From Sinanodonta woodiana (lineage: Eukaryota): a stretch of DNA of 64,000 bases. The position numbers and the translations under genes are program-made. Position 1 is the stretch's first letter, and each line of letters begins with the position of its first letter. Below the pieces are notes generated by a model that worked only from the letters and a program-made list of their open reading frames with translations, did not search any database and was not told the origin of the DNA. Where the stretch lies: positions 93,766,727 to 93,830,726 of the forward strand of contig CM100994.1 of the NCBI GenBank assembly GCA_046254885.1. The letters run 5' to 3'. Positions 14,190 to 61,789 of the stretch are shown here, piece by piece.

Positions 14190-15400
14190 GATTCTGATAC
14201 CATTTCTGTCTTTCAACAAGGATTCTGATACCCTTTCTCAGTCTTTCAACAAGGATTCTGATACCCTTTCTCAGTCTTTCAACAAGGATTCTGATACCCT
14301 TTCTCAGTCTTTTAACAAGGATTCTGATACCCTTTCTCAGTCATTCTGGATCTCTTTCAACAAGGATTGTGATACACTTTCTCAGTATTTCTGGCTCCTT
14401 TCAACGATGATTGTGATACTCTTTTTCAGTATTTCTGGCTCCTTTCAACAAGGATTGTGATACCCTTTCTCAGTATTTCTGGCTCGCTTTTAACAATGAT
14501 TGTCATACCCTTTCTCAATCTTCTATTTCTTTTATAACAATGATTGTGACACTCTTTCTCAGTATTTCTGGCTCTCTTTTAACAAGGATTGTGATACCCT
14601 TCTCAGTATTTCTGGCTCCCTTTCAACAATGATTGTGATACCCTTTCTCAGTATTTCTGGCTCGCATTCAACAAGGATTGTGATACCCTTTCTCAGTATT
14701 TCTGGCTCCCTTTTAACAAGGATTGTGATACCCTTTCTAAGTATTTCTGGCTCCCTTTCAACAATGATTGTGATATCCTTTCTCAGTATTTCTGACTCTC
14801 TTTCAACAAGGATTGTGATACCCTTTCTCAGTATTTCTGGCTCCCTTTTAACAAGGATTGTGATACCCTTTCTCAGTATTTCTGGCTCCCTTTTAACAAT
14901 GATTGTCATACCCTTTCTCAGTCTTCTGATTCACTTTTAACAATGATTGTGATGCCCTTTCTCAGTATTTCTGGCTCCCTTTCAACAATGATTGTGATAC
15001 CCTTTCTCAGTTTTTCTGGCTCCCTTTTAACAAGGATTGTCATACCCTTTCTCAGTCTTCTGATTCTCTAATAACAATGATTGTGATTCCCTTTCTCAGT
15101 ATTTCTGGCTCCCTTTCGACACGGATTGTGACACCCTTTCTCAGTATTTCTGGCTCTCTTATAAAAATGATTGTGATACCTTTCTCAGTCTTTCTGACTC
15201 TCTTTTAACAATGATTGTGATACCTTTCTCAGTCTTTCTGACTCTCTTTTAACAATGATTGTGATACCTTTCTCAGTCTTTCTGGCTCTCTTTTAACACT
15301 GATTGTGATACCTTTCTCAGTCTTTCTGGCTCTCTTTTAACACTGATTGTGATACCTTTCTCAGTCTTTCTGGCTCTCTTTTAACACTGATTGTGATGCC
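14190..15400. repeat. Minisatellite with a 36-bp unit (14200-14340) that shifts to a 46-47-bp unit (tgattgtgataccctttctcagtatttctggctccctttcaacaa), about 25 copies.
   Basis: Visible periodicity in the sequence. The overlapping long ORFs on both strands (146 aa, 116 aa) are repeat artifacts. Confidence 0.9.
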
Positions 15401-15461
15401 CTTTAATCACCTGTAGAGTTTATAAAAAGGTAACATCACATTTATGACCTAAACACAAATA

Positions 15462-16967: not shown

Positions 16968-17132
16968 GATGTATTCTCAGTCAGTGTTGGTAATTTACCA
17001 CCCAACAGTGATGTCCTAATTAAAATTACCTTCATTACTGAATTGCAAGTCTCTGGAGATAATGTATGTTTTTATCTTCCATCTTCTGTGGCTCCATGGC
17101 TAAAGGATGCAGCACTAGCTCAGGAAAAACAG
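16968..17132 (+). CDS. PARP4: VIT-domain exon (DVFSVSVGNLPPNSDVLIKITFITELQVSGDNVCFYLPSSVAPWLKDAALAQEKQ).
   Basis: Acceptor cttttacag, donor CAG|GTGATA. Matches PARP4 DVFTVSVGNLPPKAKVLIKITYITEL..PATVAPW.. Confidence 0.9.
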
Positions 17133-17369: not shown

Positions 17370-20300
17370 AGCGACTGTAAATCACAATAACATTAGCAAG
17401 CATTACATTGTACTGTAAATCACAGTGACATTAGCAAGCATTACATTGTACTGTAAATCACAGTGACATTAGTAAGCATTACATTGTACTGTAAATCACA
17501 ACATTAGCAAGCATTACATTGTACTGTAAATAACAATGACATTAGCAAGCATTACATTGTACTGTAAATCACAACATTAGCAAGCATTACACTACTGTAA
17601 ATAACAACATTAGCAAGCATTACATTGTACTGTAAATAACAATAACATTAGCAAGCATTACATTATACTGTAAATCACAATGACATTAGCAAGCATTACA
17701 TTATACTGTAAATCACAACATTAGTAAGCATTACATTGTACTGTAAATCACAACATTAGCAAGCATTACATTGTACTGTAAATCACAATGACATTAGCAA
17801 GCATTACATTGTACTGTGAATCACAACATTAGCAAGCATTACATTGTACTGTAAATCACAACATTAGCAAGCATTACATTATACTGTTAATCACAACATT
17901 AGCAAGCATTACATTGTACTGTAAATCACAATGACATTAGCAAGCATTACATTGTACTGTAAATCACAATAACATTAGCAAGCATTACATTGTACTGTAA
18001 ATCACCATAACATTAGCAAGCATTACATTGTACTGTAAATCACAATAACATTAGCAAGCATTACACTACTGTAAATCACAACATTAGCAAGCATTACATT
18101 TTACTGTTAATCACAACATTAGCAAGCATTACATTATACTGTAAATCACAATGACATTAGCAAGCATTACATTGTACTGTAAATCACAATAACATTAGCA
18201 AGCATTACATTGTACTGTAAATAACAATGACATTAGCAAGCATTACATTGTACTGTAAATCACAACATTAGCAAGCATTACATTGTACTGTAAATCACAA
18301 CATTAGCAAGCATTACATTGTACTGTAAATCACCATAACATTAGCAAGCATTACATTGTTACTGTAAATCACAATAACATTAGCAAGCATTACATTGTAC
18401 TGGGAATCACAACATTAGCAAGCATTACATTGTACTGGGAATCACAACATTAGCAAGCATTACATTATACTGTTAATCACAACATTAGCAAGCATTACAT
18501 TGTACTGTAAATAATAGCAAGCATCACATTGTACTGTAAATAATAGCAAGCATCACATTGTACTGTAAATAATAGCAAGCATTACAATGTACTGTAAATC
18601 ACAACATTAGCAAGCCTTACATTGTACTGTAAATAATAGCAAGCATCACATTGTACTGTAAATAATAGCAAGCATTACATTGTACTGTAAATCACAACAT
18701 TAGCAAGCATTACATTGTACTGTAAATCACAACATTAGCAAGCATTACATTGTACTGTAAATCACAATAACATTAGCTAGCATTACATTGTACTGTAAAT
18801 TACAATAACATTAGCAAGCATTACATTGTACTGTAAATCACAACATTAGCAAGCATTACATTGTACTGTAAATAATAGCAAGCATCACATTGTACTGTAA
18901 ATAATAGCAAGCATTACAATGTACTGTAAATCACAACATTAGCAAGCCTTACATTGTACTGTAAATAATAGCAAGCATCACATTGTACTGTAAATAATAG
19001 CAAGCATTACAATGTACTGTAAATCACAACATTAGCAAGCATTACATTGTACTGTAAATAATAGCAAGCATCACATTGTACTGTAAATAATAGCAAGCAT
19101 TACAATGTACTGTAAATCACAACATTAGCAAGCATTACATTGTACTGTGAATCACAATAACATTAGCAAACTTTATATTGTACTGTAAATCACAATAACA
19201 TTAGCAAGCATTACATTATACTGTAAATCACAATAATATTAGCAAGTGTTACATTGTACTGTAAATCACAATAACATTAGCAAGCATTACACTACTGTAA
19301 ATCACAACATTAGCAAGCATTACATTGTACTGTAAATCACAACATTACCAAGCATTACATTGTACTGTGAATCACAATAACATTAGCAAGCATTACATTG
19401 TACTGTGAATCACAATAACATTAGCAAGCATTACATTGTACTGTAAATCGCAATGACATTAGCAAGCATTACATTGTACTGTAAATAACAATGACATTAG
19501 CAAGCACTACATTGTACTGTAAATAATAGCAAGCATTACATTTTACTGTAAATCACAATAACATTAGCTAGCATTACATTGGACTGTAAATCACAACATT
19601 AGCAAGCATTGCATTGTACTGTAAATCACAATAACATTAGCAAGCATTACATTGTACTGTAAATCACAACATTAGCAAGCATTACATTTTACTGTTAATC
19701 ACAACATTAGCAAGCATTACATTGTACTGTGAATCACAATAACTTTAGCAAGCATTACATTGTACTGTAAATCACAATAACATTAGCAAGCATTACATTG
19801 TACTGTAAATCACAATAACATTAGCAAGCATTACATTGTACTGTAAATCACAACATTAGCAAGCATTACATTTAACTGTTAATCACAACATTAGCAAGCA
19901 TTACATTGTACTGTGAATCACAATAACATTAGCAAGCATTACATTGTACTGTAAATCACAGTTACATTAGCAAGCATTACATTGTACTGTAAATCACAAT
20001 AACATTAGCAAGCATTACATTGTACTGTAAATCAGAATAACATTAGCAAGTATTACATTGTACTGTAAATCACAATGACATTAGCAAGCATTACATTGTA
20101 CTGTAAATCACCATAACATTAGCAAGCATTACATTGTACTGTAAATCACAATAACATTAGCAAGCATTACTTTGTACTGTAAATCAGAATAACATTAGCA
20201 AGTATTACATTGTACTGTAAATCACGGTGACATTAGCAAGCATTACACTACTGTAAATAACAACATTAGCAAGCATTACATTGTACTGTTAATCACAACA

Positions 20301-23300
20301 TTAGCAAGCATTACATTGTACTGTTAATCACAACATTAGCAAGCATTACATTATACTGTAAATCACCATAACATAAGCAAGCATTACACTACTGTAAATC
20401 ACAACATTAGCAAGCATTACATTGTATTGTAAATCACAACATTAGCAAGCATTACATTGTATTGTAAATCACAACATTAGCAAGCATTACATTGTATTGT
20501 AAATCACAACATTAGCAAGCATTACATTATACTGTAAATCACCATAACATAAGCAAGCATTACACTACTGTAAATCACAACATTAGCAAGCATTACATTG
20601 TATTGTAAATCACAACATTAGCAAGCATTACATTATACTGTAAATCACAACATTAGCAAGCATTACATTGTACTGTAAATCACCATAACATAAGCAAGCA
20701 TTACACTACTGTAAATCACAACATTAGCAAGCATTACATTGTACTGTAAATCACCATAACATTAGCAAGCATTACATTATACTGTAAATCACCATAACAT
20801 TAGCAAGCATTACACTACTGTTAATCACAACATTAGCAAGCATTACACTACTGTTAATCACAACATTAGCAAGCATTACATTGTACTGTAAATCACAGTG
20901 ACATTAGCAAGCATTACACTACTGTAAATCACAACATTAGCAAGCATTACATTATACTGTAAATCACAACATTAGCAAGCATTACATTGTACTGTAAATC
21001 ACAACATTAGCAAGCATTACATTATACTGTAAATCACCATAACATAAGCAAGCATTACACTACTGTAAATCACAACATTAGCAAGCATTACATTGTACTG
21101 TGAATCACAACATTAGCAAGCATTGCATTGTACTGTAAATCACAACATTAGCAAGCATTACATTGTACTGTAAATCACAACATTAGCAAGCATTACATTG
21201 TACTGTGAATCACAACATTAGCAAGCATTACATTGTACTGTAAATCACAACATTAGCAAGCATTACATTGTACTGTAAATCACAACATTAGCAAGCATTA
21301 CATTTTACTGTTAATCACAACATTAGCAAGCATTACATTGTACTGTGAATCACAATAACATTAGCAAGCATTACATTGTACTGTGAATCACAATAACATT
21401 AGCAAGCATTACATTGTACTGTAAATCACAGTTACATTAGCAAGCATTACATTGTACTGTAAATCACAATAACATTAGCAAGCATTACATTGTACTGTAA
21501 ATCAGAATAACATTAGCAAGTATTACATTGTACTGTAAATCACAATGACATTAGCAAGCATTACATTGTACTGTAAATCACAACATTAGCAAGCATTACA
21601 TTTAACTGTTAATCACAACATTAGCAAGCATTACATTGTACTGTGAATCACAATAACATTAGCAAGCATTACTTTGTACTGTAAATCAGAATAACATTAG
21701 CAAGTATTACATTGTACTGTAAATCACAGTGACATTAGCAAGCATTACACTACTGTAAATAACAACATTAGCAAGCATTACATTGTATTGTAAATCACAA
21801 CATTAGCAAGCATTACATTGTACTGTTAATCACAACATTAGCAAGCATTACATTGTACTGTGAATCACAACATTAGCAAGCATTACACTACTGTAAATCA
21901 CAACATTAGCAAGCATTACATTATACTGTAAATCACCATAACATAAGCAAGCATTACACTACTGTAAATCACAACATTAGCAAGCATTACATTGTATTGT
22001 AAATCACAACATTAGCAAGCATTACATTGTACTGTGAATCACAACATTAGCAAGCATTGCATTGTACTGTAAATCACAACATTAGCAAGCATTACATTGT
22101 ACTGTAAATCACAACATTAGCAAGCATTACATTGTACTGTGAATCACAACATTAGCAAGCATTACATTGTACTGTAAATCACAACATTAGCAAGCATTAC
22201 ATTGTACTGTAAATCACAACATTAGCAAGCTTTACATTGTACTGTGAATCACAACATTAGCAAGCATTACATTGTACTGTAAATCACAACATTAGCAAGC
22301 ATTACATTGTACTGTAAATCACAACATTAGCAAGCATTACATTGTACTGTGAATAACAACATTAGCAAGCATTACATTGTACTGGGAATCACAACATTAG
22401 CAAGCATTACATTGTACTGTGAATCACAACATTAGCAAGCATTACATTGTACTGGGAATCACAACATTAGCAAGCATTACATTGTACTGTAAATCAGAAT
22501 AACATTAGCAAGCATTACATTGTACTGGGAATCACAACATTAGCAAGCATTACATTGTACTGTGAATCACAACATTAGCAAGCATTACATTGTACTGGGA
22601 ATCACAACATTAGCAAGCATTACATTGTACTGTGAATCACAACATTAGCAAGCATTACATTGTACTGTGAATCACAACATTAGCAAGCATTGCATTGTAC
22701 TGGGAATCACAACATTAGCAAGCATTACATTGTACTGTAAATCAGAATAACATTAGCAAGCATTACATTGTACTGGGAATCACAACATTAGCAAGCATTA
22801 CATTGTACTGTGAATCACAACATTAGCAAGCATTACATTGTACTGGGAATCACAACATTAGCAAGCATTACATTGTACTGTGAATCACAACATTGGCAAG
22901 CATTACATTGTACTGTGAATCACAACATTAGCAAGCATTACATTGTACTGTGAATCACAACATTAGCAAGCATTACATTGTACTGTGAATCACAACATTA
23001 GCAAGCATTGCATTGTACTGGGAATCACAACATTAGCAAGCATTACATTGTACTGGGAATCACAACATTAGTAAGCATTACATTGTACTGGGAATCACAA
23101 CATTAGCAAGCATTACATTGTACTGGGAATCACAACATTAGCAAGCATTACATTGTACTGTAAATCAGAATAACATTAGCAAGCATTACATTGTACTGGG
23201 AATCACAACATTAGCAAGCATTACATTGTACTGTGAATCACAACATTAGCAAGCATTACATTGTACTGGGAATCACAACATTAGCAAGCATTACATTGTA

Positions 23301-24335
23301 CTGTGAATCACAACATTAGCAAGCATTACATTGTACTGTGAATCACAACATTAGCAAGCATTACATTGTACTGTGAATCACAACATTAGCAAGCATTACA
23401 TTGTACCGTGAATCACAACATTAGCAAGCATTGCATTGTACTGGGAATCACAACATTAGCAAGCATTACATTGTACTGGGAATCACAACATTAGCAAGCA
23501 TTACATTGTACTGTAAATCAGAATAACATTAGCAAGCATTACATTGTACTGGGAATCACAACATTAGCAAGCATTACATTGTACTGTGAATCACAACATT
23601 AGCAAGCATTACATTGTACTGGGAATCACAACATTAGCAAGCATTACATTGTACTGTGAATCACAACATTGGCAAGCATTACATTGTACTGTGAATCACA
23701 ACATTAGCAAGCATTACATTGTACTGTGAATCACAACATTAGCAAGCATTACATTGTACTGTGAATCACAACATTAGCAAGCATTGCATTGTACTGGGAA
23801 TCACAACATTAGCAAGCATTACATTGTACTGGGAATCACAACATTAGTAAGCATTACATTGTACTGGGAATCACAACATTAGCAAGCATTACATTGTACT
23901 GGGAATCACAACATTAGCAAGCATTACATTGTACTGTAAATCAGAATAACATTAGCAAGCATTACATTGTACTGGGAATCACAACATTAGCAAGCATTAC
24001 ATTGTACTGTGAATCACAACATTAGCAAGCATTACATTGTACTGGGAATCACAACATTAGCAAGCATTACATTGTACTGTGAATCACAACATTAGCAAGC
24101 ATTACATTGTACTGTGAATCACAACATTAGCAAGCATTACATTGTACTGTAAATCACAACATTAGCAAGTATTACATTGTACCGTGAATCACAACATTAG
24201 CAAGCATTGCATTGTACTGGGAATCACAACATTAGCAAGCATTACATTGTACTGGGAATCACAACATTAGTAAGCATTACATTGTACTGGGAATCACAAC
24301 ATTAGCAAGCATTACATTGTACTGGGAATTACAAC
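17370..24335. repeat. About 7-kb satellite array. The unit is about 35 bp (cattagcaagcattacattgtactgtaaatcacaa), with 39- and 41-bp variants (..aatcacaat(a/g)acattagc..) and a 29-30-bp variant block at about 18490-19100. About 190 copies. The distal third shows alternating variants (gggaatcac / gtgaatcac) and a periodic cagaataacattagc variant.
   Basis: Direct reading of the sequence. Subfamily structure and alternating variants are visible. Confidence 0.95.
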
Positions 24336-24821
24336 CAGTATTTATTGGCCTTAATGCTACCATACTTTATGATCTTTTCATCACATTTTAAAATGAATAA
24401 CATATTAGCATAAATTAATTAATTTGCTAAATTTGTTATATTATTTATAACTGCAAATATTTCATGATTGAGAAGTTTAGCAGTACCCATTTCATCAATG
24501 ATGTTTTGCAACTGACCAGCTAGAAGGACTGTTGAATGTTGTTTGTTAGAATTACTGCAGGTGATGTTTAGTTTGTAATTTTATTAAACATATATATGTT
24601 ACTGTCAAATGTGCTTTCATTTTATTTGAAGTTTGACAATCCCTTTATGTTGAATAAAACAGTCAACATCTAATTTGGTTTGAAGTTTGATAATCCTTTT
24701 CTGTTGAATAATGCAATCACATTTAATTTTGTTTGTTTTGGTAAATCCTTTTTTGTTGAAATAACATGATCCCATTCCTGTTTTACATTGCCTAGCAATA
24801 CAAACACACATAATACTGAAG

Positions 24822-27800
24822 TACCATATTTTGGTGTGTATAACGCACACTTTTTTAACCTAATTTTCTTATCTGAAGTCGGGTGTTCGCGTTGTATACA
24901 AGAACTAAAAAACAAAGATTTTTTCCAGGTCGATCTGAAGAGGATGATGGCACTATAACCGCTTATATGTATCACATTCACAACTTGTGAAATATTAAAT
25001 CCATTATACATTGCAATGTAACTAAAATGTTTAACTGTACTACGGTACTTGCCGTATTAAAGAAATAAATAATGCTTACAAATAGTCTTGTTCTTTGATT
25101 GCTTATGTTAAAAACTGGTTTCATTTCACATCACTGTGTCAAGTTTTGTTCTGTGCCTTGGCTGTAAATACATGTACATTGTAACGTCCCGAGCTTTATT
25201 TATTAACAATGTCAGTTTTGACCAGATGTCAACATGGGCTTTTAATCACAAGACAGAAAGCTACTTAAGTTTAAATGATTTAATGAACGATAATAAGGAT
25301 AAATATTAACTGTGCAATATGCACGAACAGATCAAGAATATGATCATAATGTTCAGTCAAAACTCCGAAATAGTTCTAAAATGAGTTGAATATATTTGAA
25401 AATTCCTTCATCACATAAATATGTGGCTCAGTGTAATGTTAAGAAAGTAAACAGTCACTGAAAACAGTTAAACTTGATGTATTTCTCAGTGATAGAATAT
25501 AACCCCAAACAAATGGGATAATAAATAACACGTATTTAAAACGATACCACTTGAATGTGTTTCCCAGTGAATTTATATGTTGTGGTCCAGAATGCACTAA
25601 TATTTCTGAATTTATATTTAGAACTGTTTTTCCTTCTTTATAGTCAACTATATATCACATTAATGTAATATAGAAATAATGAATACTCCGTGTAGAAATA
25701 TTATAATTAATTCTCCCTTCTATACGTCTAGTTATTTACCGTAGCAACGGTACTGATATTTTCATATATTTATTTGATTGAATATCCACATATATTTCCT
25801 AGGGAAGCATCAGTCTTTAATACTGAATAATATATTGTAGTTTAATTTCATATCATTTGGAAGATTATATCATCCGTAATGATTTATATTGTTACAATGC
25901 GATCTATATAGTACACTTACATTAGTTGTATTAAGCTCTCTGTTCACTTCTTGTCTACAGTCTTTGCCGGTCAGAATGCGTCTGCAAAACACTTCACACG
26001 ACTGGTATTTATACCCTTGAGACCCATTGGTCTTACGCGGAGACTGATGGGAAGAATATAGGTCGTAAGTGCGTGGGGGAAACACACGAGTGGTTTGATG
26101 ATACTTAACAACATGTTAGGAACGCTCAAAAGTATGATGGCGGGTGAATTGTGATTCGCACTAATACAAATATTTTGGTAATGGTTTCTTAGTATTTGAA
26201 CACTTGATGTGAAGATATTCAAGTCAGAATTAAACACTTTATCTCAGAAAATGGATATACTAAGCAAAATAGTGTTAGACAATTTAAAAGAGAACAAACC
26301 ACAATGACCAAAAAGACCAATTTGGACCAACATTGACAACGGAATACAAACCCGTACGAAGTAAGTGCCAATCACAATCACCCAAATTATCAATATATTA
26401 ATACTCTAAAATATCATGAATGTGATATTAAAACATTTGTACACATATTTATTATTCCTAGCTTTGATGAATCCCTACAAGTCGTTTTATGTCTTCATAA
26501 ATGTACTAAAATATATCTTATTTTGTTGACCTTTGGTATAGACATGAACCACTAAAAGTTAATATTTAATGCTAAAAAGTGTGAAAATTATATTTAAACG
26601 AGCCACAATCACTTTTATATTTTATAGCACCATAATTTATCACATACATAATGACTGGCAACTTGTTCAAAAGGTGTGCAAAGTGCCGGATTGGAGCGGA
26701 ACAAATACCACTGTGTGGATTACCGTACTTGTTCTGTAAATCTTCAGTATTCCATAACTGTTGGTCTAATCAAATTTTTCTTCATTTTTTGTTGTTGGTT
26801 GAATTGAAATATACAGTGGAACCCCACTATAACACGGTAGTTGGGAGCCATAAAATCTGACCGTGTTATGAACCGTGCCATGTTATAAGCAACCATGTAC
26901 AATACCAACATGTTTTTGGATTTAATGGGGGGGGGGGTTGTTGCATAGAGTCTGGTGCGAAAATGCATGGCACAATTACCATTTTTAATCAATATATATT
27001 AAATGAGAAAAACATTTGCTGTGGTAACAAAAATTGCAGATTTAATATATTACTTTATTCAGAGAACCATGCATTGGTACATACACGTGTCTAATTTATA
27101 TATACATGTATACTATATTGCTTGAAAAGATTATCAACACCGTGTACTCAGCAGCAATTCCTGTAACATACATTGAATCCATAATACAAATATTTCCATT
27201 GAATATATCCATGCATGGATGTAAAATATTCAATATTTTTGTCACAGAACATTATGTGACTGAATTTAATGGAAAAAAAATACATAACGGGTGTACGTAA
27301 TGAATGATGAAATAGTACTTGTACCTAGATTAAATATCGGAAGCTAATGTGTATTCTTATAATAACTACATGTACATCTCAGGTTCTTTCTGTCTCTGAA
27401 TTTAGTCATTGTAAATTTCAGCACATTTTCCCACCCAAGCTGCTAGTCAAAGACCTTTGAATTTGCCGCCCAGCTAGTCCCGCTAATACGTCATGTTCTT
27501 TTGATGTACTCTAATAAATACAGCAGGTAGAACTGGCTGTGTTTTAAACACATAATAAAGTAATCAACACTAACTTTGTCTCCCAGTTATGCGTCCCAGA
27601 TTTAAAAAAAAAAGAAAGTTGCATTCAACTATGCGTAATTAAGCATTTCCGAGACCTCTGTGTCATATACATTTTATATTACTTTATTTCTCATCTGTCA
27701 AAAGTTATTTTTTAATTTTTTTAAATAAAAACTCTGATTTTTAGCTGCTTTCTGCTAATGTCACGTTTGCTCAATGCAAAGTCAATTATTGTTCTCAGTT

Positions 27801-28592
27801 GTAGAATTCGAATTTCCTAGTCAACAGATTGCATAAAACAACACTGCCAAGCCACGCGCGAATGTTGGCGGCTTTTTTTCTTTGATGCTGTTTAAATCAT
27901 TGCCCCCTGATTTGAACAAGTTTAGCTCGGCAGTTCACTTTGATGATAAACAATGTATTTATTTTAATTGATTTATACATTCTGGTGAGATTTTTTATTA
28001 TCAACTGCTGCATTGGCTGTTGCTTAGTTGTGTATGAATACATAGAACATATATCAGAGATTACAGAAACGATTGTATTAGGAATGCATTCAAGACAAAC
28101 AAAAAGTAGACTTGATGGCTTCATTGCTCAGGGATCAGGAATAATAATATTGACATTTATGAGCTGTCATTTTTCAACAATAAACAAAGATCAAAGTTCT
28201 CAGTAGGCCCAGCAATTGGTTCATATTCTGGCACATAACTAGAATTTTTAAAAGTAATTTTTAGGAGCCATACAACGATTATTTTATATTCAATTTTGTG
28301 TGTGATTTCCTCCTCAAAATTATAATACATTTTCTACATGATTTTTCCCCCTGCAGTTTTTAGACGAGTATGAGAATGTTAATTAAACTCTTGACATTTG
28401 TTATTTTTATACTTACTAATGTTAATGTCAGAGTAACTTTAGGGGACATATTTTTTTGCGACTACGGGTTCTAAAATGCATTATCTCACATGCACGTTAT
28501 ATGGCAGAACTATGTTTTTTCCACTTATTTTGGGTTGAAAATTGGGGTGTGCGTGATACATCGGTGCACATTATACACACCAAAATATGGTA
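24822..28592. mobile_element. Non-autonomous TIR element, copy 1 (family B). It has roughly 28-bp TIRs (taccatattttggtgtgtataacgcacac / gtgcacattatacacaccaaaatatggta) and carries a roughly 1.46-kb nested insertion at about 25185-26648 relative to copy 2. It also contains a G9 homopolymer at about 26927.
   Basis: The termini are inverted repeats. The body is co-linear and about 85-90% identical to 57537-59880, apart from the block 25185-26648, which copy 2 lacks. Both copies are flanked by TA. Confidence 0.75.
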
Positions 28593-30032: not shown

Positions 30033-30155
30033 GAAAGCCTTCATTCTGTGAAAATAAAGGACAACAAAAGATGTGAATGTTCAGTTCAGATTTCTGTTGA
30101 GATGCCCTTTGACATCAGAAAAATCTACTCACCAACTCATCGATTAAAAGTCAAG
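30033..30155 (+). CDS. PARP4: Last VIT-domain exon (ESLHSVKIKDNKRCECSVQISVEMPFDIRKIYSPTHRLKVK).
   Basis: Acceptor ttcttattacag, donor AAG|GTAGAGT. Matches PARP4 ..TVEKICIKEIGTKQSFSLTMSIEMPYVIEFIFSDTHELKQK. The SPTH motif is typical of the VIT C-terminus. Confidence 0.85.
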
Positions 30156-30162
30156 GTAGAGT

Positions 30163-30450
30163 AGCAGCAGAGGGGTCGTATCTGACAGCTTTTTTTGCTT
30201 AAACACGATTAAGGCCTCAAAACGATAAAACGAGCCTTCCTTCAAAATCTCACATTTCGAACCAAAAAAAAATTTAGTCCCCGTTTGTCAAACAGAGCCC
30301 TAGCAGTTAAAGCCGTTGTTTGCCAAAATGAGACCTATAACAGTATTTTTTTTGTTAACATATATCACCGTTGCAACAGGCTCGTGCTTCCGTTTCCATG
30401 GCTAATCAAACTTTTGCCTGAAATTTGTAAAGTTCGACCCCTCTGCTGCT
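30163..30450. repeat. Left TIR (288 bp). The TIR is itself bounded by 16-bp inverted repeats (agcagcagaggggtcg ... cgacccctctgctgct).
   Basis: Read directly in the sequence. The same nested structure appears in the right TIR at 35442-35723. Confidence 0.9.
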
Positions 30451-30463
30451 AAGGGTTACGGTT

Positions 30464-31134
30464 TCAACAAAAAAAATTATCAAGTCCGATACGATATCGT
30501 GTTTGAGGATCATATAAATTAATCGTTACAAATCCATGCGGAGCCGACTGAGCATGACTAAAAAAGTTTTTAAAAACATTAAAATCCATGTTTCCACCGC
30601 ACCAAGTTTGCCAGATATTGCGTAGCGTATGCGTATCAACGCCGTTAAACACAGCAAGGATGTTACAGTTGTCCCTGATTACCTTTGGAATCTGAGTGTA
30701 TCGTTGAGTGACATATCACATCAGTGCTTTTATGCCTTCCTCGCGAAAATATTCTAGCGGGTTTTTTTTGATTGTCTAACATAACGTCATCGTACACAAC
30801 TAATTTGGTAACGCTACCGTCTATATCGTCAATGGATGGTGCGTCATCGATATCTGTAATAAACTCTGACACTGTTTTCGGTGATCTCTGATGCATTATC
30901 GTTAAAATCCTTTAACACCTCGTAGCACCGTTGATCATCTACGCTAGGTGCAACTAAATATAACTTGTTCCATTTCATCCATCTTATTATTAGATTGAGT
31001 AGCAATTGCGTTTTTCCGCTCCCAGATGGTCCGATTATAATCATCCGGATAGAATTTGGTAGCGCTGCAACGTGTTTAACCGGTTCCCTTGTCGTAGTCG
31101 CTGAAAAATCAATTACATTCATATCGCTATACAT
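30464..31134 (-). pseudogene. FtsK/HerA-superfamily, poxvirus-A32-like DNA-packaging ATPase of about 223 aa, disrupted by two frameshifts (near 30850-30895 and near 30705-30715).
   Basis: Three consecutive minus-strand ORFs in different frames carry, in order: Walker A IIIGPSGSGKTQLLLNL; then ..LYLVAPS.., then Walker B KLVVYDDVM.. and SRGRH; then (after a frame change) VTQRYTQIPKVIRDNCNILAVFNGV.., which is the Q..iPk.iR.N.n motif region characteristic of A32/polinton/virophage packaging ATPases. Confidence 0.8.
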
Positions 31135-31139
31135 TAATT

Positions 31140-31430
31140 ATGGATCTATATTGTGTAAAGTGTAAAACGCGTACTAGTACAAACGATATGATGACGGTTA
31201 CCACAAAAAGCAATCGAGCAGCCCTTACTGGTAAGTGTGCAACATGCGGTGTAAAGAAATTTAAATTTATTTCCGCTAAGGGTATTAAAAAAAGCGAGGA
31301 GGTGATATTGCAGCCAAAGTATCAAAACTCTCCGGAATTCGGGTTAACATCTATAACATCAAATACATCAGCTGGTCTTGGTGGTCGATCGACTGCAGCT
31401 TCGTGTTTTGCCTTTACCCTATTATACTGA
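31140..31430 (+). CDS. Small C4 zinc-ribbon protein (CVKC..17 aa..CATCG). The zinc-ribbon core of about 55 aa lies exactly in the gap between two minus-strand ORFs.
   Basis: MDLYCVKCKTRTSTNDMMTVTTKSNRAALTGKCATCGVKKFKFISAKG: CxxC-x17-CxxC with basic residues. The 3' half of the ORF overlaps the convergent 183-aa ORF and may be non-coding. Confidence 0.45.
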   Translation: MDLYCVKCKTRTSTNDMMTVTTKSNRAALTGKCATCGVKKFKFISAKGIKKSEEVILQPKYQNSPEFGLTSITSNTSAGLGGRSTAASCFAFTLLY

Positions 31431-31873
31431 ATATGATTAGCGTTATTAGTAGTATCCTTAGCGAACATCATTGACGGGCCTGCTGACCTTGTATAGTCGT
31501 CAGAATATCTTGCTAGCCCGATTACTGTTGTTGCAACATCGACATCGTTTTCTATAGATTCGATTTCTCGCCCGTCAATGAGATATCTTGCTGAACCAAA
31601 TAACGCCATGATGCCGTTGTTGACAAAACCAACTCGGACATTTGCGTCATCTGCGTATGGATTATTATTTGCTTGAATAAGTTCTCCTTCGATTTCGATA
31701 AACGCTTCACACGGCAAAAAGTATTTACTGGTATCATGGACTTGAAGTTTAATTCGCGATCGTAGGTCAGGTTGTTCTGCATGATAAGAATAATACTGAT
31801 AATCACGGACAGAATCATCCTTGCGCACTGGCGCGTCCATATCGAAGGCCGGATCAGCTGTTCTTTGAAACAT
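31322..31873 (-). CDS. 183-aa ORF in the viral-like element. Function unknown. A structural or capsid-like role is inferred from its position next to the packaging ATPase.
   Basis: Uninterrupted ORF with CpG-rich viral-like composition. No motif I can assign with confidence. Its start overlaps the stop of the upstream 169-aa ORF in another frame, which suggests the two may be fragments of one larger gene. Confidence 0.4.
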   Translation of the reverse strand: MFQRTADPAFDMDAPVRKDDSVRDYQYYSYHAEQPDLRSRIKLQVHDTSKYFLPCEAFIEIEGELIQANNNPYADDANVRVGFVNNGIMALFGSARYLIDGREIESIENDVDVATTVIGLARYSDDYTRSAGPSMMFAKDTTNNANHIQYNRVKAKHEAAVDRPPRPADVFDVIDVNPNSGEF

Positions 31874-31902
31874 ATTATTGTAATTGCGTTGACGTTTTCA
31901 AT

Positions 31903-32412
31903 TCATCGTCGTTTTCGTTGTAAATGTTTCAAATTTCTTTTTAAATTCTCTGACGCTAGACCGCTTCCTGCTATCGCGTTCAACAGCGTATTCGTTGTTG
32001 TATCAGAAGATGGCGAGGCCGCTAGCAACGCAGCCGGAGCCGCCAACGAAGTTAGTTTTTTTTCTACTGCATCGTTTATTACGCTGGCTACACTTTTAGG
32101 CATCACTGTGGTAGAAGGTAACGGCGTTGGTTTTTGTCGCTGCCGTCTCACCAGTGATACTGTTTTGTCTTTTGCTGCAGAAAGTGCCTTGCTGGCAAGG
32201 CTACCAACAGCGCTGATTCCTTTATCACGTAACACATCTATGGCTTTCGTTGATAGTTGTTTAGCTAACGGTGCCACCTTGGGAGCCATTCTTGCAAATA
32301 AACCCGCTATGGTGTCACCGAGACCATTCCCATAAAACGCGCGGTAAACTGGTAATCGTGAGTTTACAACGTAAACGCTGACTGGTTTATCATGGTTGTA
32401 ATGTATGATCAT
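31903..32412 (-). CDS. 169-aa ORF, rich in Ala/Ser/Lys and low-complexity. Possibly a minor virion or membrane-interacting protein, or part of a fragmented larger gene.
   Basis: ORF only. Its composition resembles the A/G/S-rich minor capsid or cement proteins of adeno- and polinton-like viruses. This is inference. Confidence 0.35.
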   Translation of the reverse strand: MIIHYNHDKPVSVYVVNSRLPVYRAFYGNGLGDTIAGLFARMAPKVAPLAKQLSTKAIDVLRDKGISAVGSLASKALSAAKDKTVSLVRRQRQKPTPLPSTTVMPKSVASVINDAVEKKLTSLAAPAALLAASPSSDTTTNTLLNAIAGSGLASENLKRNLKHLQRKRR

Positions 32413-32474
32413 CTTATAACAACTAGCAGTTTTTTAATTATGAAAAACCCCACGAAGATAAATTGACCCACAGT

Positions 32475-32885
32475 TTAGTCGCTGTGATAACCATCCATGA
32501 GTTCGTCTATGGGTTCTCGATATGTGCCAACGTCCATGATACCCCCACGGAATAAACGCGCGCAAATATCTGGTGATTCATTAATTATTTCCGGTAAATT
32601 ATTTCCGGCTCGTATTCCTCCAATAAGAACCTGAAGACGTGATATATCACTGAGAATATTGCCTGGACAAGTAATACTAGCGCTTCCAACTACGCCACTA
32701 CGTAAATATCCGTGTCCTTTTTTAGAGGTGCCAGTTACCCCATCGTCTTTTTGTTTTTGTTTTTGTAGCCACTCGACCCGTCTACTTTTAACGAGATCAC
32801 TAAAAGCTTTGAAATTTTCATCTTTTGGTGGTAGTGTATTTCTGTGTATCCGCGCCAAGTACATCATTCGAATCCATTTATCCAA
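32475..32885 (-). CDS. 136-aa ORF, function unknown.
   Basis: ORF co-oriented with the neighbouring element genes. Confidence 0.35.
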   Translation of the reverse strand: MDKWIRMMYLARIHRNTLPPKDENFKAFSDLVKSRRVEWLQKQKQKDDGVTGTSKKGHGYLRSGVVGSASITCPGNILSDISRLQVLIGGIRAGNNLPEIINESPDICARLFRGGIMDVGTYREPIDELMDGYHSD

Positions 32886-32997
32886 CGCGGATACATTTTC
32901 CTCGTAACCTGGATTTGCATGTATCTCTCGTTGACGCAGGTAAAAATGTTCAACAGTAAAATCAATTACTTGATCCCATTTATCAAAGCCTCTAATT

Positions 32998-33501
32998 TTA
33001 TCTATTGTACTTTTTTTTAAATACTTTACTGGGTATATTTTCTCTGATATCTCTTTGTTGCTGTATTATATCATCTATTTCTTGTTGTGTTTCTTGTTGT
33101 AATAGCTCTTCTTCTGGTTGCATTGCGGTGGCACCTGGCTCCTCTTCATCAGCCATTGTAACATAAGGTTGCTGTTGTTCAGATGTTGATGTTATAGCAA
33201 GTGGCTGCTTCACATCCCCCCGTCGGCGATATGCTGTAGCAACTGCTATTTCCACAGGAAGTGTTTCCAGATACTTTTTTGATTGTTTGGTCTGCGCTGT
33301 TATCTTTTCAAGTTCGCCAAGAATGGGTGTAGTTGCACTGGTTATTGGCTTAAATAACTGTTCACTTCCAACAACAAAATCGTCTTTTTGTTCTTGGCGA
33401 GTCTGCAACTGCTTCCTTAGCCTATCTCGTACAGGAATAAACTGTTTAATAGCAGTCAAACGCTCCCTGGCCGATTTGGTTGTAAGCGATTCATTCACCA
33501 T
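32998..33501 (-). CDS. 167-aa ORF, acidic and Gln-rich with predicted coiled or disordered character. Possibly a scaffold- or phosphoprotein-like product.
   Basis: ORF. An EEEPGATAMQPEEELLQQETQQEIDDIIQQQ acidic stretch. Confidence 0.35.
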   Translation of the reverse strand: MVNESLTTKSARERLTAIKQFIPVRDRLRKQLQTRQEQKDDFVVGSEQLFKPITSATTPILGELEKITAQTKQSKKYLETLPVEIAVATAYRRRGDVKQPLAITSTSEQQQPYVTMADEEEPGATAMQPEEELLQQETQQEIDDIIQQQRDIRENIPSKVFKKKYNR

Positions 33502-33723
33502 GTATTATTACGTTACAGTTTCAAAATGATTTTCAAATTTCCCGCGAGTGTATATAAACACAGACTGGTACTATGTTAAACTGCATGTTAGCGAGTACAG
33601 TAACATTTTTACCAAGGAATGCTAAATAGTTGTCTTATACATATAATTACACGCAGTAACAATTTTACGTATATAAATTGCAAAAAAAATATAAGTTTTG
33701 TTTGTTATTAACAGAATTAATTA

Positions 33724-34026
33724 TTAATTTGATTCCTCGATAATCTTTTTTATGTGCTTGACTTGCTGGTAAATCTCTTTTCGGACCTCGAAAGCATTGC
33801 CAAGTCGTTTCCGTATTGTTTCAACGATAGTGTACAATTCAATAAATACTTTTACGTCTTGGTTATATAAATTTTGATGAATCGCATATTGTAATCGCTT
33901 TTTAAAGGCATATGACCTAGGTAGCGTATTACGACCTTTTTTTGATTGCTGGTCAATAAGTTCATACTGCGATACAATATTTTCGACGTCAAGTTTATCA
34001 TTCAAGACGACCCCTTGATTTTTCAA
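33724..34026 (-). CDS. 100-aa basic ORF, the first gene of the minus-strand block. Function unknown.
   Basis: ORF followed by an AT-rich putative promoter region at 34030-34130. Confidence 0.3.
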   Translation of the reverse strand: MKNQGVVLNDKLDVENIVSQYELIDQQSKKGRNTLPRSYAFKKRLQYAIHQNLYNQDVKVFIELYTIVETIRKRLGNAFEVRKEIYQQVKHIKKIIEESN

Positions 34027-34165
34027 TTTTGAAATTTCATCCGTTATATTTTTTATATCAACACTAATATTTTTATCTTGATCATTTATTATTATATTAA
34101 CAATTTATATCTTTGATTTTAAAAAAAAAACAAAACAAGAAAAACAAGGCAAGACAATGCAGGCA

Positions 34166-34220
<55 letters not shown>

Positions 34221-34222
34221 TT
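34166..34222. repeat. (ATT)19 microsatellite followed by a poly-T run.
   Basis: Read directly in the sequence. Confidence 0.95.
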
Positions 34223-35039
34223 TTTTTTTTTTTTAAAAATGCAAAATAATTGACAGGCTTATTATGAGCGGTTATTCATTATCACGAGTCCCTTATTCAG
34301 GCCTTTGTGTCTCCATAGGGTCTTTTTACAAACACATATTTTACATTTTTCACATATAGACAACACCAAGGTCAGTCAAACCCATTCTGGGTTTGCCCAT
34401 TCCCGGGCATTTCCGACCTTTGCCCTATGATCGTTTCTGTAGGCCGGTAGCCCATTCTGTGCTACCCTATTGGGATCCTCGTGAGAATTTAGAGCTTTCA
34501 TCAATGCCTGTCATTTATTTTTACGTCCACACACTTTGACGCCCAGATAAGTAATCTCCGGCAAGCAACCTATCTCAGCAAACACTGTGATAGGTTACTT
34601 ATAAGGTACATATTTGGGGGTGGGCGGATCCTTCGAAAGCCTACGAACCAATCAAAAGCAACCCAGAAAATTAACCTGGTTGCATTGACAGAAAACAGTC
34701 AACCTTACGACCGAGGTAACGGCGTGGGTTGCTTTTTTTTATTTGCTTTGCAAGCTTTCGAAAGCTCCAAAAGCTTAACGACTCATATTCTATATAAGCT
34801 GAATGATGCAGCGATATCAAGGAAAAGGTTGTGCTAATTTGAATCGCTTTGAACCATTAAATCGCTAAGAACTTATTAATAGCGTTCAACAGCACTTAAA
34901 TAAAACCAAATATTTGAAACAAATAATAAACAAAAGAATACAGCGTTGCGATAACAGCATAAATTTCATTAGTTTTTATTTTAAAAAAATGAATTAATCA
35001 AAACATTAATTGGACTTCAAGGGGAGATCACTCTAAGTG

Positions 35040-35432
35040 ACTTTTATGGAGTTACCTCCCCTTAAAAAATTATCTTCCCTTGAATTTTTTTATCTCCCCT
35101 TGAAATTTTTTTTATCTCCCCTTGAAAAAAATATCTCTCCTTTAAAAAAATTTCTCCCCTTTAAATTTTTTTTTTATCTCCCCTTGAAATTTTGTATCTC
35201 CCTTTGAATTTTTTTATCTCCCCTTGAAAAACAGAGTTATCTCCTCTTAAAAAAGTTATCTCCCCTTAAAAAAATTACCTCCCTTGAAAAAATAATTACC
35301 TCCCTTTGAAAAAAATTATCTCCCCTTAAAAAAGTTATCTCCCCTTAAAAAAGTTATCTCCCTTAAAAAAAGTTATCTCCCCTTAAAAAAATACCTCCCC
35401 TTAAATTTTTTTTATCTCCCCTTGAAAAAAAA
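35040..35432. repeat. Tandem repeat of about 19-21 bp (ttatctccccttgaaaaaa), about 19 copies, inside the element and abutting the right TIR.
   Basis: Read directly in the sequence. Confidence 0.9.
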
Positions 35433-35441
35433 AATTAACAC

Positions 35442-35723
35442 AGCAGCAGAGGGGTCGAACCCTACAAATTTCAGGCAAAAGTTTGATTAGCTGTGGAAAC
35501 GGAAGCGCGAGCCTGTTGCAACGGTGATATATTTTAACAAAAAAATACTGTTATAGGTCTCATTTTGGCAAACAACGGCTTTAACTGCTAAAGCTCTGTT
35601 TGACAAACGGGGACTAAATTTTTTTGTTTGTTTGAAATGTGAGATTTTGAAGGAAGGCTCGTTTTATCGTTTTGAGGCCTTAATCGTGTTTAAGCAAAAA
35701 AAGTTGTCCAATACTCTGCTGCT
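35442..35723. repeat. Right TIR (282 bp) of the viral-like element. It is also bounded by the 16-bp inverted repeats agcagcagaggggtcg ... cgac(c/t)c.. / ..ctctgctgct.
   Basis: It is the reverse complement of 30163-30450. Confidence 0.9.
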
Positions 35724-36715
35724 AGAGTAAAACAGAAATAAGTAAATTACATTTTTCTGAAATATTTCAAGGTAGATTTTGTCAGCATTTAGAAAATAAC
35801 GCATTGTTTCTGTGAACATAGAAAAAGGAAAGCAAATAATGGCATTTGAGGTATACAGGAATAGTCAGTGTTTGTCCTTGTGTTTTTGGATCACCTGGCC
35901 TTACAGTCAAGTGAGCTTTTAATGTCGTCCTCTATTTGTATGCCATTCATCAACATTTGTTTTGTTATCTCTCTGGAGACTGATTGCTATCCAGTTTTGA
36001 TCAGGTAGGAATATGGGCTTATATCATCCAGAGTTTTAAAGAGAAAGATAATGACCAGGATTGTGTGTATCCTTGGCATGACTGCACTCAAGAGATTGTA
36101 TTTCTGATCTGATTTTGTATTAGGTTGGTAGGTAGGCTTAAATCATCAATATTTCAAATGAATACTGTTGTGAGTGAGCTCCATGCAGTATGTTAATGAG
36201 ATGATATTTTGTCTAATTGACTAAAATTGTCAGTATGTTTGTAACTCAATTTCTTATCAGATATTTATCAAACATGTTTAAGCTGTCCATGAATTTATTA
36301 TGAGCAAAATCTGTACATATTAATAAAGTGTCCTTGCATCAGATTTGTTGAGCTTCTTATCAGTCAGAACCTGATTGTGATCAAACCTGATTGTGATCAA
36401 ATCCAATTTGACTTTGTACGTTTTCTAAAATCATCAAGAATATAGTTATGAGCTGTTTATCAAACTTGATAAATTGGCTTATGTCATTAAGATCTTGATT
36501 TATTTGTTCTGTGTGAGATTCACACATCACTGGTGTCATCGAACTGACTGAGTTAGTCAGCATTCTAGCAAATATACTTCTGATGAGATTTTAATCAAAT
36601 TAGCTTATATTTTCAAGATGTTGGATGAGTTTGTTTAGGAGTAAATTCTGAATATTTACAAGTTAATACACTTTGATCTGTATCAATAAAGTATTTATTC
36701 CATCTTATTGTCTGA

Positions 36716-37581: not shown

Positions 37582-37716
37582 AAAACAGATACAAAGGCAG
37601 TTGTAGAAATACCAAAGAACTCCAGGCTGGATGAGGGATTTGAACTTCAGGTTTCACTTGCAGAAATCCATGTGCCAAGAATGTGGGTGGAAAAGCATAC
37701 AGAAAAAGATTCACAG
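37582..37716 (+). CDS. PARP4: Exon between VIT and vWA (KTDTKAVVEIPKNSRLDEGFELQVSLAEIHVPRMWVEKHTEKDSQ).
   Basis: Acceptor ttccttgtcag, donor CAG|GTACAT. Matches PARP4 ..LPRMWVEKHPEKESE. Confidence 0.9.
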
Positions 37717-38089: not shown

Positions 38090-40950
38090 GTAGGTCTGTA
38101 GTTTGTAATAGCTGGTCTCTGCCTAAATTGTGGAAACAGTTTGCAATAGCTAGTCTCTGCCTAAGCTGTGGAGACAGTTTGTAATAACTGGTCTCTGCCT
38201 AAACTGTGGAGAGTTTGCAATAGCTGTTCTCTGCTTAAACTGTGGAGAGTTTGCAATAGCTGGTCTCTGCATAAACTGTGGAGAGTTTGTAATAACTGGT
38301 CTCTGCCTAAGATGTGGAGAGTTTGCAATAGCTGGTCTCTGCCTAAACTGTGGAGAGTTTGCAATAGCTGGTATCTGCCTAAACTGTGGAGAGTTTGCAA
38401 TTGCTGGTCGCTGCATAAACTGTGGAGACAGTTTGTAATAACTGGAACTGTGGAGACAGTTTGTAATAACTGGTCTCTGCCTAAACTGTGGAGAGTTTGC
38501 AATAGCTGGTGTCTGCCTAAGTTGTGGAGAGTTTGCAATAGCTGGTCTCTGCCTAAACTGTGGAGACAGTTTGTAACAACTGGTCTCTGCCTAAACTGTG
38601 GAGAGTTTGCAATAGCTGGTCTCTGCATAAACTGTGGAGACATTTTGTAATAGCTGGTCTCTGCCTAAACTGTGGAGAGTTTGCAATAGCTGGTCTCTGC
38701 CTAAGTTGTGGAGACAGTTTGTAATAACTGGTCTCTGCCTAAACTGTGGAGACAGTTTGTAATGACTGGTCTCTGCCTAAACTGTGGAGAGTTTGCAATA
38801 GCTAGTCTCTAAGTTGTGGAGAGTTTGCAATAGCTGGTCTCTGCCTAAACTGTGGAGACAGTTTGTAATAACTGGTCTCTGCCTAAACTGTGGAGACAGT
38901 TTGTAATAACTGGTCTCTGCCTAAACTGTGGAGACAGTTTGTAATAGCTGGTCTCTGCCTAAGTTGTGGAGACAGTTTGTAATAGCTTGTCTCTGCCTAA
39001 ACTGTAGAGACAGTTTGTAATAGCTGGTCTCTGCCTAAACTGTGGAGACAGTTTGCAATAGCTGGTCTCTGCCTGAGTTGTGGAGACAGTTTGTAATAAC
39101 TGGTCTCTGCCTAAATTGTGGAGACAGTTTTTAATAGCTTGTCTCTGCCTAAATTGTGGAAACAGTTTGCAATAGCTAGTCTCTGCTTAAACTGTGGAGA
39201 CAGTTTGTAATAACTGGTCTCTGCCTAAGCTGTGGAGAGTTTGCAATAGCTGGTCTCTGCCTAAACTGTGGAGAGTTTGCAATAGCTGGTATCTGCCAAA
39301 GTTGTGGAGAGAGTTTATAATAACTAGTCTCTGCCTAAACTGTGGAGAGTTTGCAATAGCTGGTCTCTGCATAAACTGTGGAGACAGTTTGTAATAACTG
39401 GTCTCTGCATAAGCTGTGGAGACAGTTTGCAATAGCTGGTCTCTGCATAAACTGTGGAGACAGTTTGTAATAACTGGTGTCTGCCTAAACTGTGGAGAGT
39501 TTGCAATAGCTGGTGTCTGCCTAAGTTGTGGAGAGTTTGCAATAGCTGGTCTCTGCCTAAACTGTGGAGACAGTTTGTAATAACTGGTCTCTGCCTAAAC
39601 TGTGGAGAGTTTGCAATAGCTAGTCTCTGCCTAAGTTGTGGAGAGTTTGCAATAGCTGGTCTCTGCATAAACTGTGGAGACAGTTTGTAATAGCTTATCT
39701 CTGCCTAAATTGTGGAGAGAGTTTGTAATAACTGTTCTCTGCCTAAACTGTGGAGACAGTTTGTAATAACTGGTCTCTGCCTAAACTGTGGAGACAGTTT
39801 GTAATAACTGGTCTCTGCCTAAACTGTGGAGACAGTTTGTTATAACTGGTCTCTGCATTAACTGTGGAGACAGTTTGTAATAGCTGGTCTCTGCCTAAAC
39901 TGTGGAGACAGTTTGTAATAACTGGTCTCTGCATAAACTGTGGAGACAGTTTGTAATAACTGGTCTCTGCCTAAACTGTAGAGACATTTTGTAATAGTTG
40001 GTCTCTGCCTAAACTGTGGAGACAGTTTGCAAGAGCTAGTCTCTGCCTAAACTGTGGAAACAGTTTGTAATAGCTGGTCTCTGCCTAAACTGTGGAGACA
40101 GTTTGTAATAGCTAGTCTCTGCCTGAGTTGTGGAGACAGTTTGTAATAGCTGGTCTCTGCCTAAGTTGTGGAGACAGTTTGTAATAACTGGTCTCTGCCT
40201 AAACTGTGGAGACAGTTTGTAATAGCTAGTCTCTGCCTAAGTTGTGGAGACAGTTTGTAATAACTGGTCTCTGCCTAAACTGTGGAGACAGTTTGTAATA
40301 GTTAGTCTCTGCCTAAGTTGTGGAGACAGTTTGTAATAGCTAGTCTCTGCCTAAGCTGTGGAGACAGTTTGTAATAGTTAGTCTCTGCCTAAGTTGTGGA
40401 GACAGTTTGTAATAGCTGGTCTCTGCCTAAACTGTAGAGACAGTTTGTAATAGCTGGTCTCTGCCTAAACTGTGGAGACAGTTTTTAATAGCTGGTCTCT
40501 GCCTAAACTGTGGAGACAGTTTGTAATAGCTGGTGTCTGCCTAAACTGTGGAGACAGTTTGTAATAGCTAGTCTCTGCCTGAGTTGTGGAGACAGTTTGT
40601 AATAACTGGTCTCTGCCTAAACTGTGGAGACAGTTTGTAATAGTTAGTCTCTGCCTAAGTTGTGGAGACAGTTTGTAATAGCTAGTCTCTGCCTAAGCTG
40701 TGGAGACAGTTTGTAATAGTTAGTCTCTGCCTAAGTTGTGGAGACAGTTTGTAATAGCTGGTCTCTGCCTAAACTGTAGAGACAGTTTGTAATAGCTGGT
40801 CTCTGCCTAAACTGTGGAGACAGTTTTTAATAGCTGGTCTCTGCCTAAACTGTGGAGACAGTTTGTAATAGCTGGTCTCTGCCTAAACTGTGGAGACAGT
40901 TTTTAATAGCTAGTCTCTGCCTAAGTTGTAGAGACAGTTTGTAATAGCTG
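38090..40950. repeat. 2.9-kb satellite with a 38-41-bp unit (ctgtggagacagtttgtaatagctggtctctgcctaaa), about 70 copies.
   Basis: Read directly in the sequence. The overlapping 160-aa ORFs on both strands are artifacts. Confidence 0.95.
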
Positions 40951-41327: not shown

Positions 41328-41447
41328 GCCTGCATGTTGACCTTCTATCCCGAGTTTGAGAGTGAGAAGGAAGAGTCAACTGAAATTCTTTTCCTAATTG
41401 ACATGTCAAACTCTATGAAAGGTGATGCTGAAAGAGATGCTAAAAAG
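41328..41447 (+). CDS. PARP4: vWA-domain first exon (ACMLTFYPEFESEKEESTEILFLIDMSNSMKGDAERDAKK).
   Basis: Acceptor cttttttag, donor AAG|GTCAGC (weak). The DxSxS MIDAS motif (LIDMSNSM) is present. Matches PARP4 ACMLVFQPD..ICLDCSSSMEG. Confidence 0.85.
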
Positions 41448-48470: not shown

Positions 48471-48533
48471 TTTAATTTCATTGAAATTATCTCATATATT
48501 TTGTACAGTTGTAAATCTTTTTATTGCTTACAG

Positions 48534-58845: not shown

Positions 58846-58894
<49 letters not shown>

Positions 58895-61722: not shown

Positions 61723-61789
61723 GTAGGTTAATACAACTGCAGGCTCTAAAGAGATTTTAGTCAAGGTTCTTTTTATATTGATATTGAGG

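Follow-up and report, generated by a model that had tools for sequence, protein, structure and literature searches.

A decaying Maverick/adintovirus-like element beside a PARP4 splice donor in Sinanodonta woodiana, with the donor probably kept by the target-site duplication

What kind of DNA entered the PARP4 intron that begins at 30156 in Sinanodonta woodiana, and how did the splice donor beside it come through the insertion? In the window (the whole stretch of 64,000 nucleotides that was analyzed), a first-pass annotation had placed a viral-like element 7 bp downstream of the PARP4 exon ending at 30155, with its terminal inverted repeat (TIR) starting at 30163; the junction sequence and the inverted repeat both agreed with this placement. 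The account that we consider probable is a Maverick/adintovirus-like integration in which the donor was kept by the duplication of the target and which persists as a decaying, most likely tolerated copy. The exon and the ends of the element are defined by the following features.

30033–30155, plus strand: PARP4 coding exon of 123 nt (41 codons, phase 0-0), recognized by orthologue collinearity and an AG acceptor with a pyrimidine tract
30156–30162, plus strand: 5′ splice site GTAGAGT (AAG/GTAGAGT), non-consensus at +4 to +6
30158–30162, no strand: left target-site duplication AGAGT, equal to donor positions +3 to +7
30163–30450, no strand: left TIR, 288 nt, with terminus AGCAGCAGAGGGGTCG; its inner end has an inverted copy of the same 16-mer and folds back
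35442–35723, no strand: right TIR, 282 nt, ending in CTCTGCTGCT, with a 6-bp deletion near its outer tip
35724–35728, no strand: right target-site duplication AGAGT, flanking the right terminus
37582–37716, plus strand: next PARP4 exon (KTDTKAVVEIPK...KDSQ), phase 0-0, from orthologue alignment

The host gene, PARP4, lies on the plus strand of the window, with catalytic-domain exons at about 3.4, 7.8, and 9.2 kb, VIT-region exons at 11.3, 13.1, 14.0, and 17.0 kb, and exons from 41328–41447 onward that reach into the vWA domain. The concatenated exons matched PARP4 proteins with VIT, VIT_2, and vWA domains (E = 1e-111), with the best identities to Crassostrea gigas (59% over 73% of the query) and Solemya velum (61% over 39%) and about 50–53% identity to vertebrate PARP4 proteins. 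An open frame was found in every PARP4 exon detected by homology, from 3438 to about 52200, and exons g–j were in phase on detailed checking. As a separate observation, the PARP4-like proteins closest among those with DNA (P0030 and P0031) are encoded by uninterrupted 1.6-kb open reading frames (ORFs) running from VIT to vWA; their eukaryotic loci (L013 and L014; ENA ERZ25066847 and ERZ25067903) are intronless where PARP4 here has at least eight introns.

The exon at 30033–30155, whose product reads ESLHSV...SPTHRLKVK, encodes a conserved segment that lies after the Pfam VIT domain and before the vWA domain. It had been described as the VIT-domain exon, a label that does not hold, given that the Pfam VIT envelope (138.5 bits) stops 34 aa before the exon begins. 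The proposed splice from this exon to 37582 agrees with an orthologue alignment continuous across the junction: ...SPTHRLKVK/KTDTKAVVEI was collinear with PARP4 orthologues such as SPTHPLKVKKTDTKAVIEL, and in the multiple alignment ...MPFDIRKIYSPTHRLKVK/KTDTKAVVEIPK ran gap-free against SPTHSLKMKKTDTKAVVEL and SPTHPLKVKKTDTKAVIEL across 30155/37582. At 30153–30157, which reads AAG/GT, the GT directly follows the last homology-supported codon with no alternative in-frame site, and an in-frame TAG stands two codons past 30155 (30160–30162). The exon end at 30155 and the donor at 30156 thus appear well supported by orthologue collinearity together with the in-frame stop.

That the insertion left the donor in place was correct, the sequence being unchanged through +8, whereas its description as a GTAGAGT consensus was not, since GTAGAG fits the metazoan donor consensus (GTRAGT) at +1 to +3 only. 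The other PARP4 donors in the window, among them GTGATA, GTACAT, GTCAGC, and GTAAAA, are equally non-consensus. Bulged U1 registers at 5′ splice sites have reportedly been described by Roca et al. in 2012, and by bulging out +4, GTA(G)AGT could pair in the manner of GTAAGT; this register would involve bases up to +7, the final base of the duplication. The exons at 16968–17132, 30033–30155, 37582–37716, and 41328–41447 are all phase 0-0, and skipping of the 123-nt exon would therefore keep the reading frame.

The element spans 30163–35723 (5,561 bp), and its first base is the eighth base after the exon (intron +8). The left junction (30147–30178) reads aaa gtc aag, then gtagagt, then AGCAGCAGAGGGGTCG; the right junction (35714–35735) reads CTCTGCTGCT, then agagt, then aaaacag. 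The earlier claim that the target-site duplication AGAGT coincides with donor positions +3 to +7 was upheld, as AGAGT flanks both ends, a 5-base flank match with a chance of about 0.0017 at the local base composition. After the insertion, the donor sequence is identical from −3 through +8, and the computed intron length has grown from 1,860 to 7,426 nt. Symmetrical ends give the 5-bp AGAGT, and a 6-bp TAGAGT requires the terminal T at 35723 to be assigned to the target. In three independent insertions, the base following ...CTGCTGCT varies (A, G, or C), which favors assigning the T at 35723 to the element itself. A 5-bp duplication of AGAGT is thus the probable reading and TAGAGT, which is formally possible, the less likely one; under both, the empty site would be predicted as CAAGGTAGAGTAAAACAG. 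The flanks of the three insertions (AGAGT..., GTACGT..., CAACAT...) share no target motif, and no family preference for donor-like sequence is visible among these three flanks. At the right edge, 35724–35733 reads AGA/GTAAAAC, which contains a donor-like GTAAAA matching in type the PARP4 donor used at 42522/GTAAAA; exonization of part of the element could turn it into a cryptic donor.

The termini of the element, AGCAGCAG...CTGCTGCT, are the exact points at which the pairing of the TIRs ends. The repeat finder paired the TIRs in three collinear blocks with 93–98% complementarity, and the global alignment over 288/282 nt contained 13 substitutions (10 transitions) and three indels, corresponding to about 4.6% substitution divergence. 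By our reading of the alignment, about 4 of these 13 substitutions resemble the decay of CpG sites. The terminal 16-mer occurs three times in the 64-kb window, all within the element, against zero expected by chance, and no second copy of any part of the element was found elsewhere in the window. Inverted copies of the terminal motif AGCAGCAGAGGGG stand at the two limits of each terminal repeat, an architecture also observed in the relatives L016 (about 2660–2922) and L017 (2398–2547) with different module lengths. Because it recurs in these two diverged relatives, this architecture looks conserved at the ends of the lineage, where it may represent repeated binding sites or a foldback.

Repeats of other kinds also occur in the window. 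Upstream of the exon at 30033–30155, much of the 12.9-kb intron is taken up by a 7-kb minisatellite (17374–24335) in which a 35-bp unit is repeated about 196 times, and further large arrays lie at 895–2849, 14308–15404, 38100–40950, 47324–48472, 49079–50315, 54872–55771, and 61773–63193. In the array at 43309–45544 (42-bp unit), one frame is open for 769 codons. A dispersed repeat of about 2.35 kb is present as two same-strand copies that are 86.5% identical and lie in different PARP4 introns (24821–28592 and 57534–59880), the former being interrupted by about 1.47 kb (25180–26644). A GC-richer patch (about 0.40) at 4400–5200, within an intron of the PARP catalytic region and with plus-strand frames of up to 150 codons, may be another mobile-element fragment.

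The interior of the element contains the following features.

30464–31134, minus strand: pseudogene of an A32/FtsK-type packaging ATPase, carrying Walker A GPSGSGKT and broken by frameshifts at two places, near 30875 and 30713
31140–31342 (ORF to 31430), plus strand: zinc-ribbon (DUF5679) gene, Pfam DUF5679 at 47.8 bits
31340–31391, no strand: internal deletion junction; homology to L016 stops at 31340–31342, and homology to the major capsid protein (MCP) of L002 begins at 31391
31322–31873, minus strand: double-jelly-roll (DJR) major capsid protein, truncated to its N-terminal 165–175 aa or so (N-terminal third)
31903–32412, minus strand: 169-aa ORF, 64–65% identical to the L001 and L002 ORFs beside the MCP gene and also present in the Potamilus locus L003
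32475–33501, minus strand: homologue of a 363-aa protein of the relatives, with a frameshift near 33013–33032; L001 176–1264 aligns in two frames by tblastn
33724–34026, minus strand: 100-aa ORF with no family match
34250–34860, plus strand: non-coding, GC-richer stretch with a CCAAT-like site at 34648 and TATATAAG at 34791–34798
35045–35440, no strand: subterminal array of 19- to 22-bp repeats (TTATCTCCCCTTAAAAAAG), about 400 bp, adjoining the right TIR

The viral-like identity proposed in the first-pass annotation was corroborated by the A32 ATPase, the DJR capsid fragment, the TIRs, and the duplication. The ORFs lie mostly on the minus strand, that is, antisense to PARP4. The first ATPase ORF alone reached 24.1 bits against Pfam Pox_A32, which passes the cutoff, and the three frames joined reached 44.7 bits; intact homologues (219–221 aa, up to 88% identity) align in three frames, which is the basis for placing the two frameshifts. 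The capsid fragment is 79% identical to an N-terminal MCP ORF of L002, the adjoining ORF of which matches PF21738 (DJR-like_dom, 62.4 bits), and further matches to the fragment came from the freshwater mussels Sinanodonta and Potamilus. The 169-aa ORF, which had no Pfam family above the cutoff, and the homologue of the 363-aa protein keep the same order in the relatives. Of the PLA2-like ORF of L016, only about the first 17 codons have a counterpart in the zinc-ribbon gene; the similarity stops at about 31342, the remainder of that part having gone with the internal deletion. Since integrase-side homology ends at 31340 and capsid-side homology begins at 31391, this junction joins an integrase-side module to a truncated capsid gene, with the middle of the element deleted; the MCP C-terminus, a 140-aa gene, a protease-like ORF, the integrase, and anything between them are missing there. 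No polymerase (polymerase B), integrase, or protease was found among the ORFs and Pfam matches of 30163–35723, and PHROGs gave no meaningful matches. The element carries at least three frameshifts. ORFs are thus present, as had been stated, yet "ORF-dense" is misleading for broken pseudogene pieces, and the copy is best described as defective, internally deleted, non-autonomous, and decaying. The site TATATAAG, reported near 34790 on the plus strand, was located as listed above, and no ORF of any length follows it on that strand. Rfam and tRNA scans of the whole window gave no matches, so that no known RNA gene corresponds to 34250–34860. The element also has an AT-rich stretch that includes an (ATT)n run.

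The base composition sets the element apart from its surroundings. The CpG richness noted for about 5.5 kb of inserted DNA was confirmed, the CpG observed/expected ratio being 1.16 over the 5,561 bp (224 CpG against 243 GpC) versus 0.06–0.30 in the host intron flanks (35 against 138 outside the element). The ratio rose to 1.29 in the coding part, and the relatives ranged from 0.9 to 1.23. Because a virus-like CpG content has been kept, we infer that the element is much younger than the surrounding intron. The insertion is nevertheless not brand new: its TIR arms are 4.6% apart, so "recent" applies only in a relative sense.

The relatives of the ATPase and the capsid fragment come from bivalve genomes and metagenomes, and the parts absent from this copy can be read from them. 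In L017, an rve integrase (PF00665, 35.4 bits; cutoff, 32.6) is followed by a zinc-ribbon-PLA2 gene and the ATPase, and the terminal module, bounded by AGCAGCAGAGAGGG...CCCTCTCTGCTGCT and then unrelated sequence, ends in the ...CTCTGCTGCT motif. L016 has the same arrangement, carries the N-terminus of the integrase, is 77% identical at the DNA level to 30456–31340, and ends in ...CCCTCCCTGCTGCT/GTACGT. In L016, L017, and L018, DUF5679 precedes or is fused to Phospholip_A2_4 (parvovirus-type PLA2). One 165-aa protein with a DUF5679 zinc ribbon fused to PLA2 was observed at L017 819–1316 and L018 4–501; the fusion gene is divergent from the packaging ATPase and lies beside the rve integrase, and L016 has two separate ORFs. 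On the capsid side, L001 and L002 carry the capsid gene, then the 140-aa gene, then an ORF with sub-threshold similarity to Peptidase_C5 (16–18 bits; cutoff, 21.3). Polymerase B was not seen in L001, L002, L016, or L017, metagenome contigs of only 2.7–4.6 kb. The degraded Potamilus locus L003, interrupted by a GIY-YIG retroelement, was of no help for classification. Scans of IMG/VR with the capsid fragment, the ATPase, and the 16-nt terminus retrieved no relatives, nine IMG/VR matches to the 16-mer having no extended similarity to the element, and a 26-mer of the TIR had no exact match in JGI metagenome contigs.

The element matches a Maverick/adintovirus-like lineage, the name "Maverick/Polinton" being based only on the integrase, ATPase, DJR capsid, TIRs, and duplication. 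The likeness to Mavericks/Polintons, including adintoviruses, comprises TIRs of several hundred base pairs with 5′-AG...CT-3′ ends and a short repeated motif, a DJR capsid gene (here an N-terminal fragment) with an A32-type ATPase, and, in the relatives, an rve integrase, a parvovirus-like PLA2, and a weak adenain-like ORF. [quoted passage not shown] Vertebrate Mavericks, whose end motifs and duplications are treated in PMC8097293, have ends built of a short repeated motif, for instance (AGT)2; the motif is (AGC)2AG in our element versus (AG)3 or (AGT)2 in vertebrate Mavericks. The differences are its size (5.56 kb versus 15–20 kb or more), the frameshifts and the lack of polymerase B, integrase, and protease, and a duplication that is probably 5 bp rather than the canonical 6 bp (5–6 bp across the wider group). 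With polymerase B seen nowhere, full Maverick/Polinton membership is only tentative for the lineage and does not apply to this copy. Polinton-like viruses and Mavirus-type virophages from protist genomes share rve-type integration, TIRs, and 5- to 6-bp duplications (PMC12220804), but the host here is an animal and no association with a giant virus was seen.

The terminal modules also raise the idea that two inverted 290-bp MITE copies came by chance to flank a fragment of viral DNA instead of one element having its own TIRs. Each 288/282-nt repeat is indeed bounded by inverted copies of AGCAGCAGAGGGGTCG in a MITE-like manner, but there is no separate duplication around either repeat (inner flanks AAGGG and AACAC versus outer AGAGT), AGAGT flanks the pair only, and no solo copy of the module occurs in the 64-kb window. 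The same kind of module stands directly after the ATPase gene in L016 and L017, which makes it a feature of the lineage, and the idea was rejected on these three grounds as highly improbable. A single element might instead have been deleted before it inserted, its 5.56-kb form consisting of ends and a partial virion module mobilized in trans by full-length relatives. Clean ends and a perfect duplication despite the loss of the integrase would agree with this, as would the CpG content that is still virus-like, but the ATPase, with two frameshifts in 670 bp, shows a density close to that of the TIRs, with three indels in 570 bp, which fits decay in place. The 31340–31391 junction was seen in this copy only, and we regard a pre-deleted form as rather unlikely.

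Integration followed by decay in place leaves the question of the effect on PARP4, for which the first-pass annotation had put forward altered splicing, chimeric or antisense transcripts, and silencing as candidates. The left TIR as RNA was predicted to fold into a long hairpin (minimum free energy, −83.5 kcal/mol; z = −3.4) whose GC-rich, 16-bp closing stem begins exactly at 30163. The insertion could disturb PARP4 expression by lowering the use of the GTAGAG donor, which is weak in the linear register, and the symmetrical exon could be skipped in frame with a loss of 41 aa; intron retention or local silencing would be other outcomes. Such a disturbance could arise from the 288-nt foldback starting at intron +8, from a TIR-TIR duplex of about 280 bp across 5 kb of the pre-mRNA, from the four-fold longer intron, or from antisense transcription, the ATPase pseudogene being oriented toward the exon with no AATAAA or ATTAAA on its strand between its stop and the exon, and a TATA-like site being present on the plus strand at 34791. 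Against this, the donor is the same from −3 through +8, the other PARP4 donors are equally non-consensus, U1 binds co-transcriptionally before the right TIR is synthesized, and the broken genes of the element give no evidence of active promoters. Disturbance of PARP4 is unlikely in our view. A trans-mobilized "mini-adintovirus" of 5.56 kb, and/or a foldback TIR that alters inclusion of the 123-nt exon to give an allele-specific isoform, is a bolder proposal that we consider very doubtful. The open PARP4 exons and the donor unchanged through +8 point to, without proving, a tolerated insertion, although the copy may be haplotype-specific and mildly deleterious instead of neutral.

In the proposed history, a Maverick/Polinton (adintovirus-like) element would have entered an intron of PARP4 whose length at that time was about 1.86 kb, with an rve-type integrase, as suggested by the relatives, making staggered cuts 5 bp apart in the target at AGAGT (intron +3 to +7). 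Gap repair would have doubled AGAGT, with the exon-side copy keeping AAG/GTAGAGT intact, and the first base of the element, an A, would coincide with the former +8 base by chance. Since a staggered cut followed by repair leaves the full AGAGT on the exon side, the donor would have been preserved by the integration mechanism itself. The copy has lost its middle (the end of the capsid gene, the integrase, the protease-like ORF, and a polymerase if there was one) and has gathered frameshifts, and it most likely persists as a tolerated, roughly neutral intronic element antisense to PARP4.

Intronic transposons near splice sites are likewise tolerated at less than 10 nt from an exon with the core splice signal kept; the difference here is that the signal was kept because the duplicated target equals donor positions +3 to +7. 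The locus adds an example and no new principle, being an ordinary though neatly placed intronic insertion. It nonetheless offers a clean, dated Maverick/adintovirus-like insertion in an animal gene, with both ends, the duplication, and an inferable pre-insertion sequence. Its geometry suggests that, where target and splice donor overlap, the staggered-cut mechanism alone can keep the donor intact. If the insertion is polymorphic, the locus would provide a natural experiment on how foreign, CpG-rich, hairpin-forming DNA is tolerated at position +8 of a 5′ splice site.
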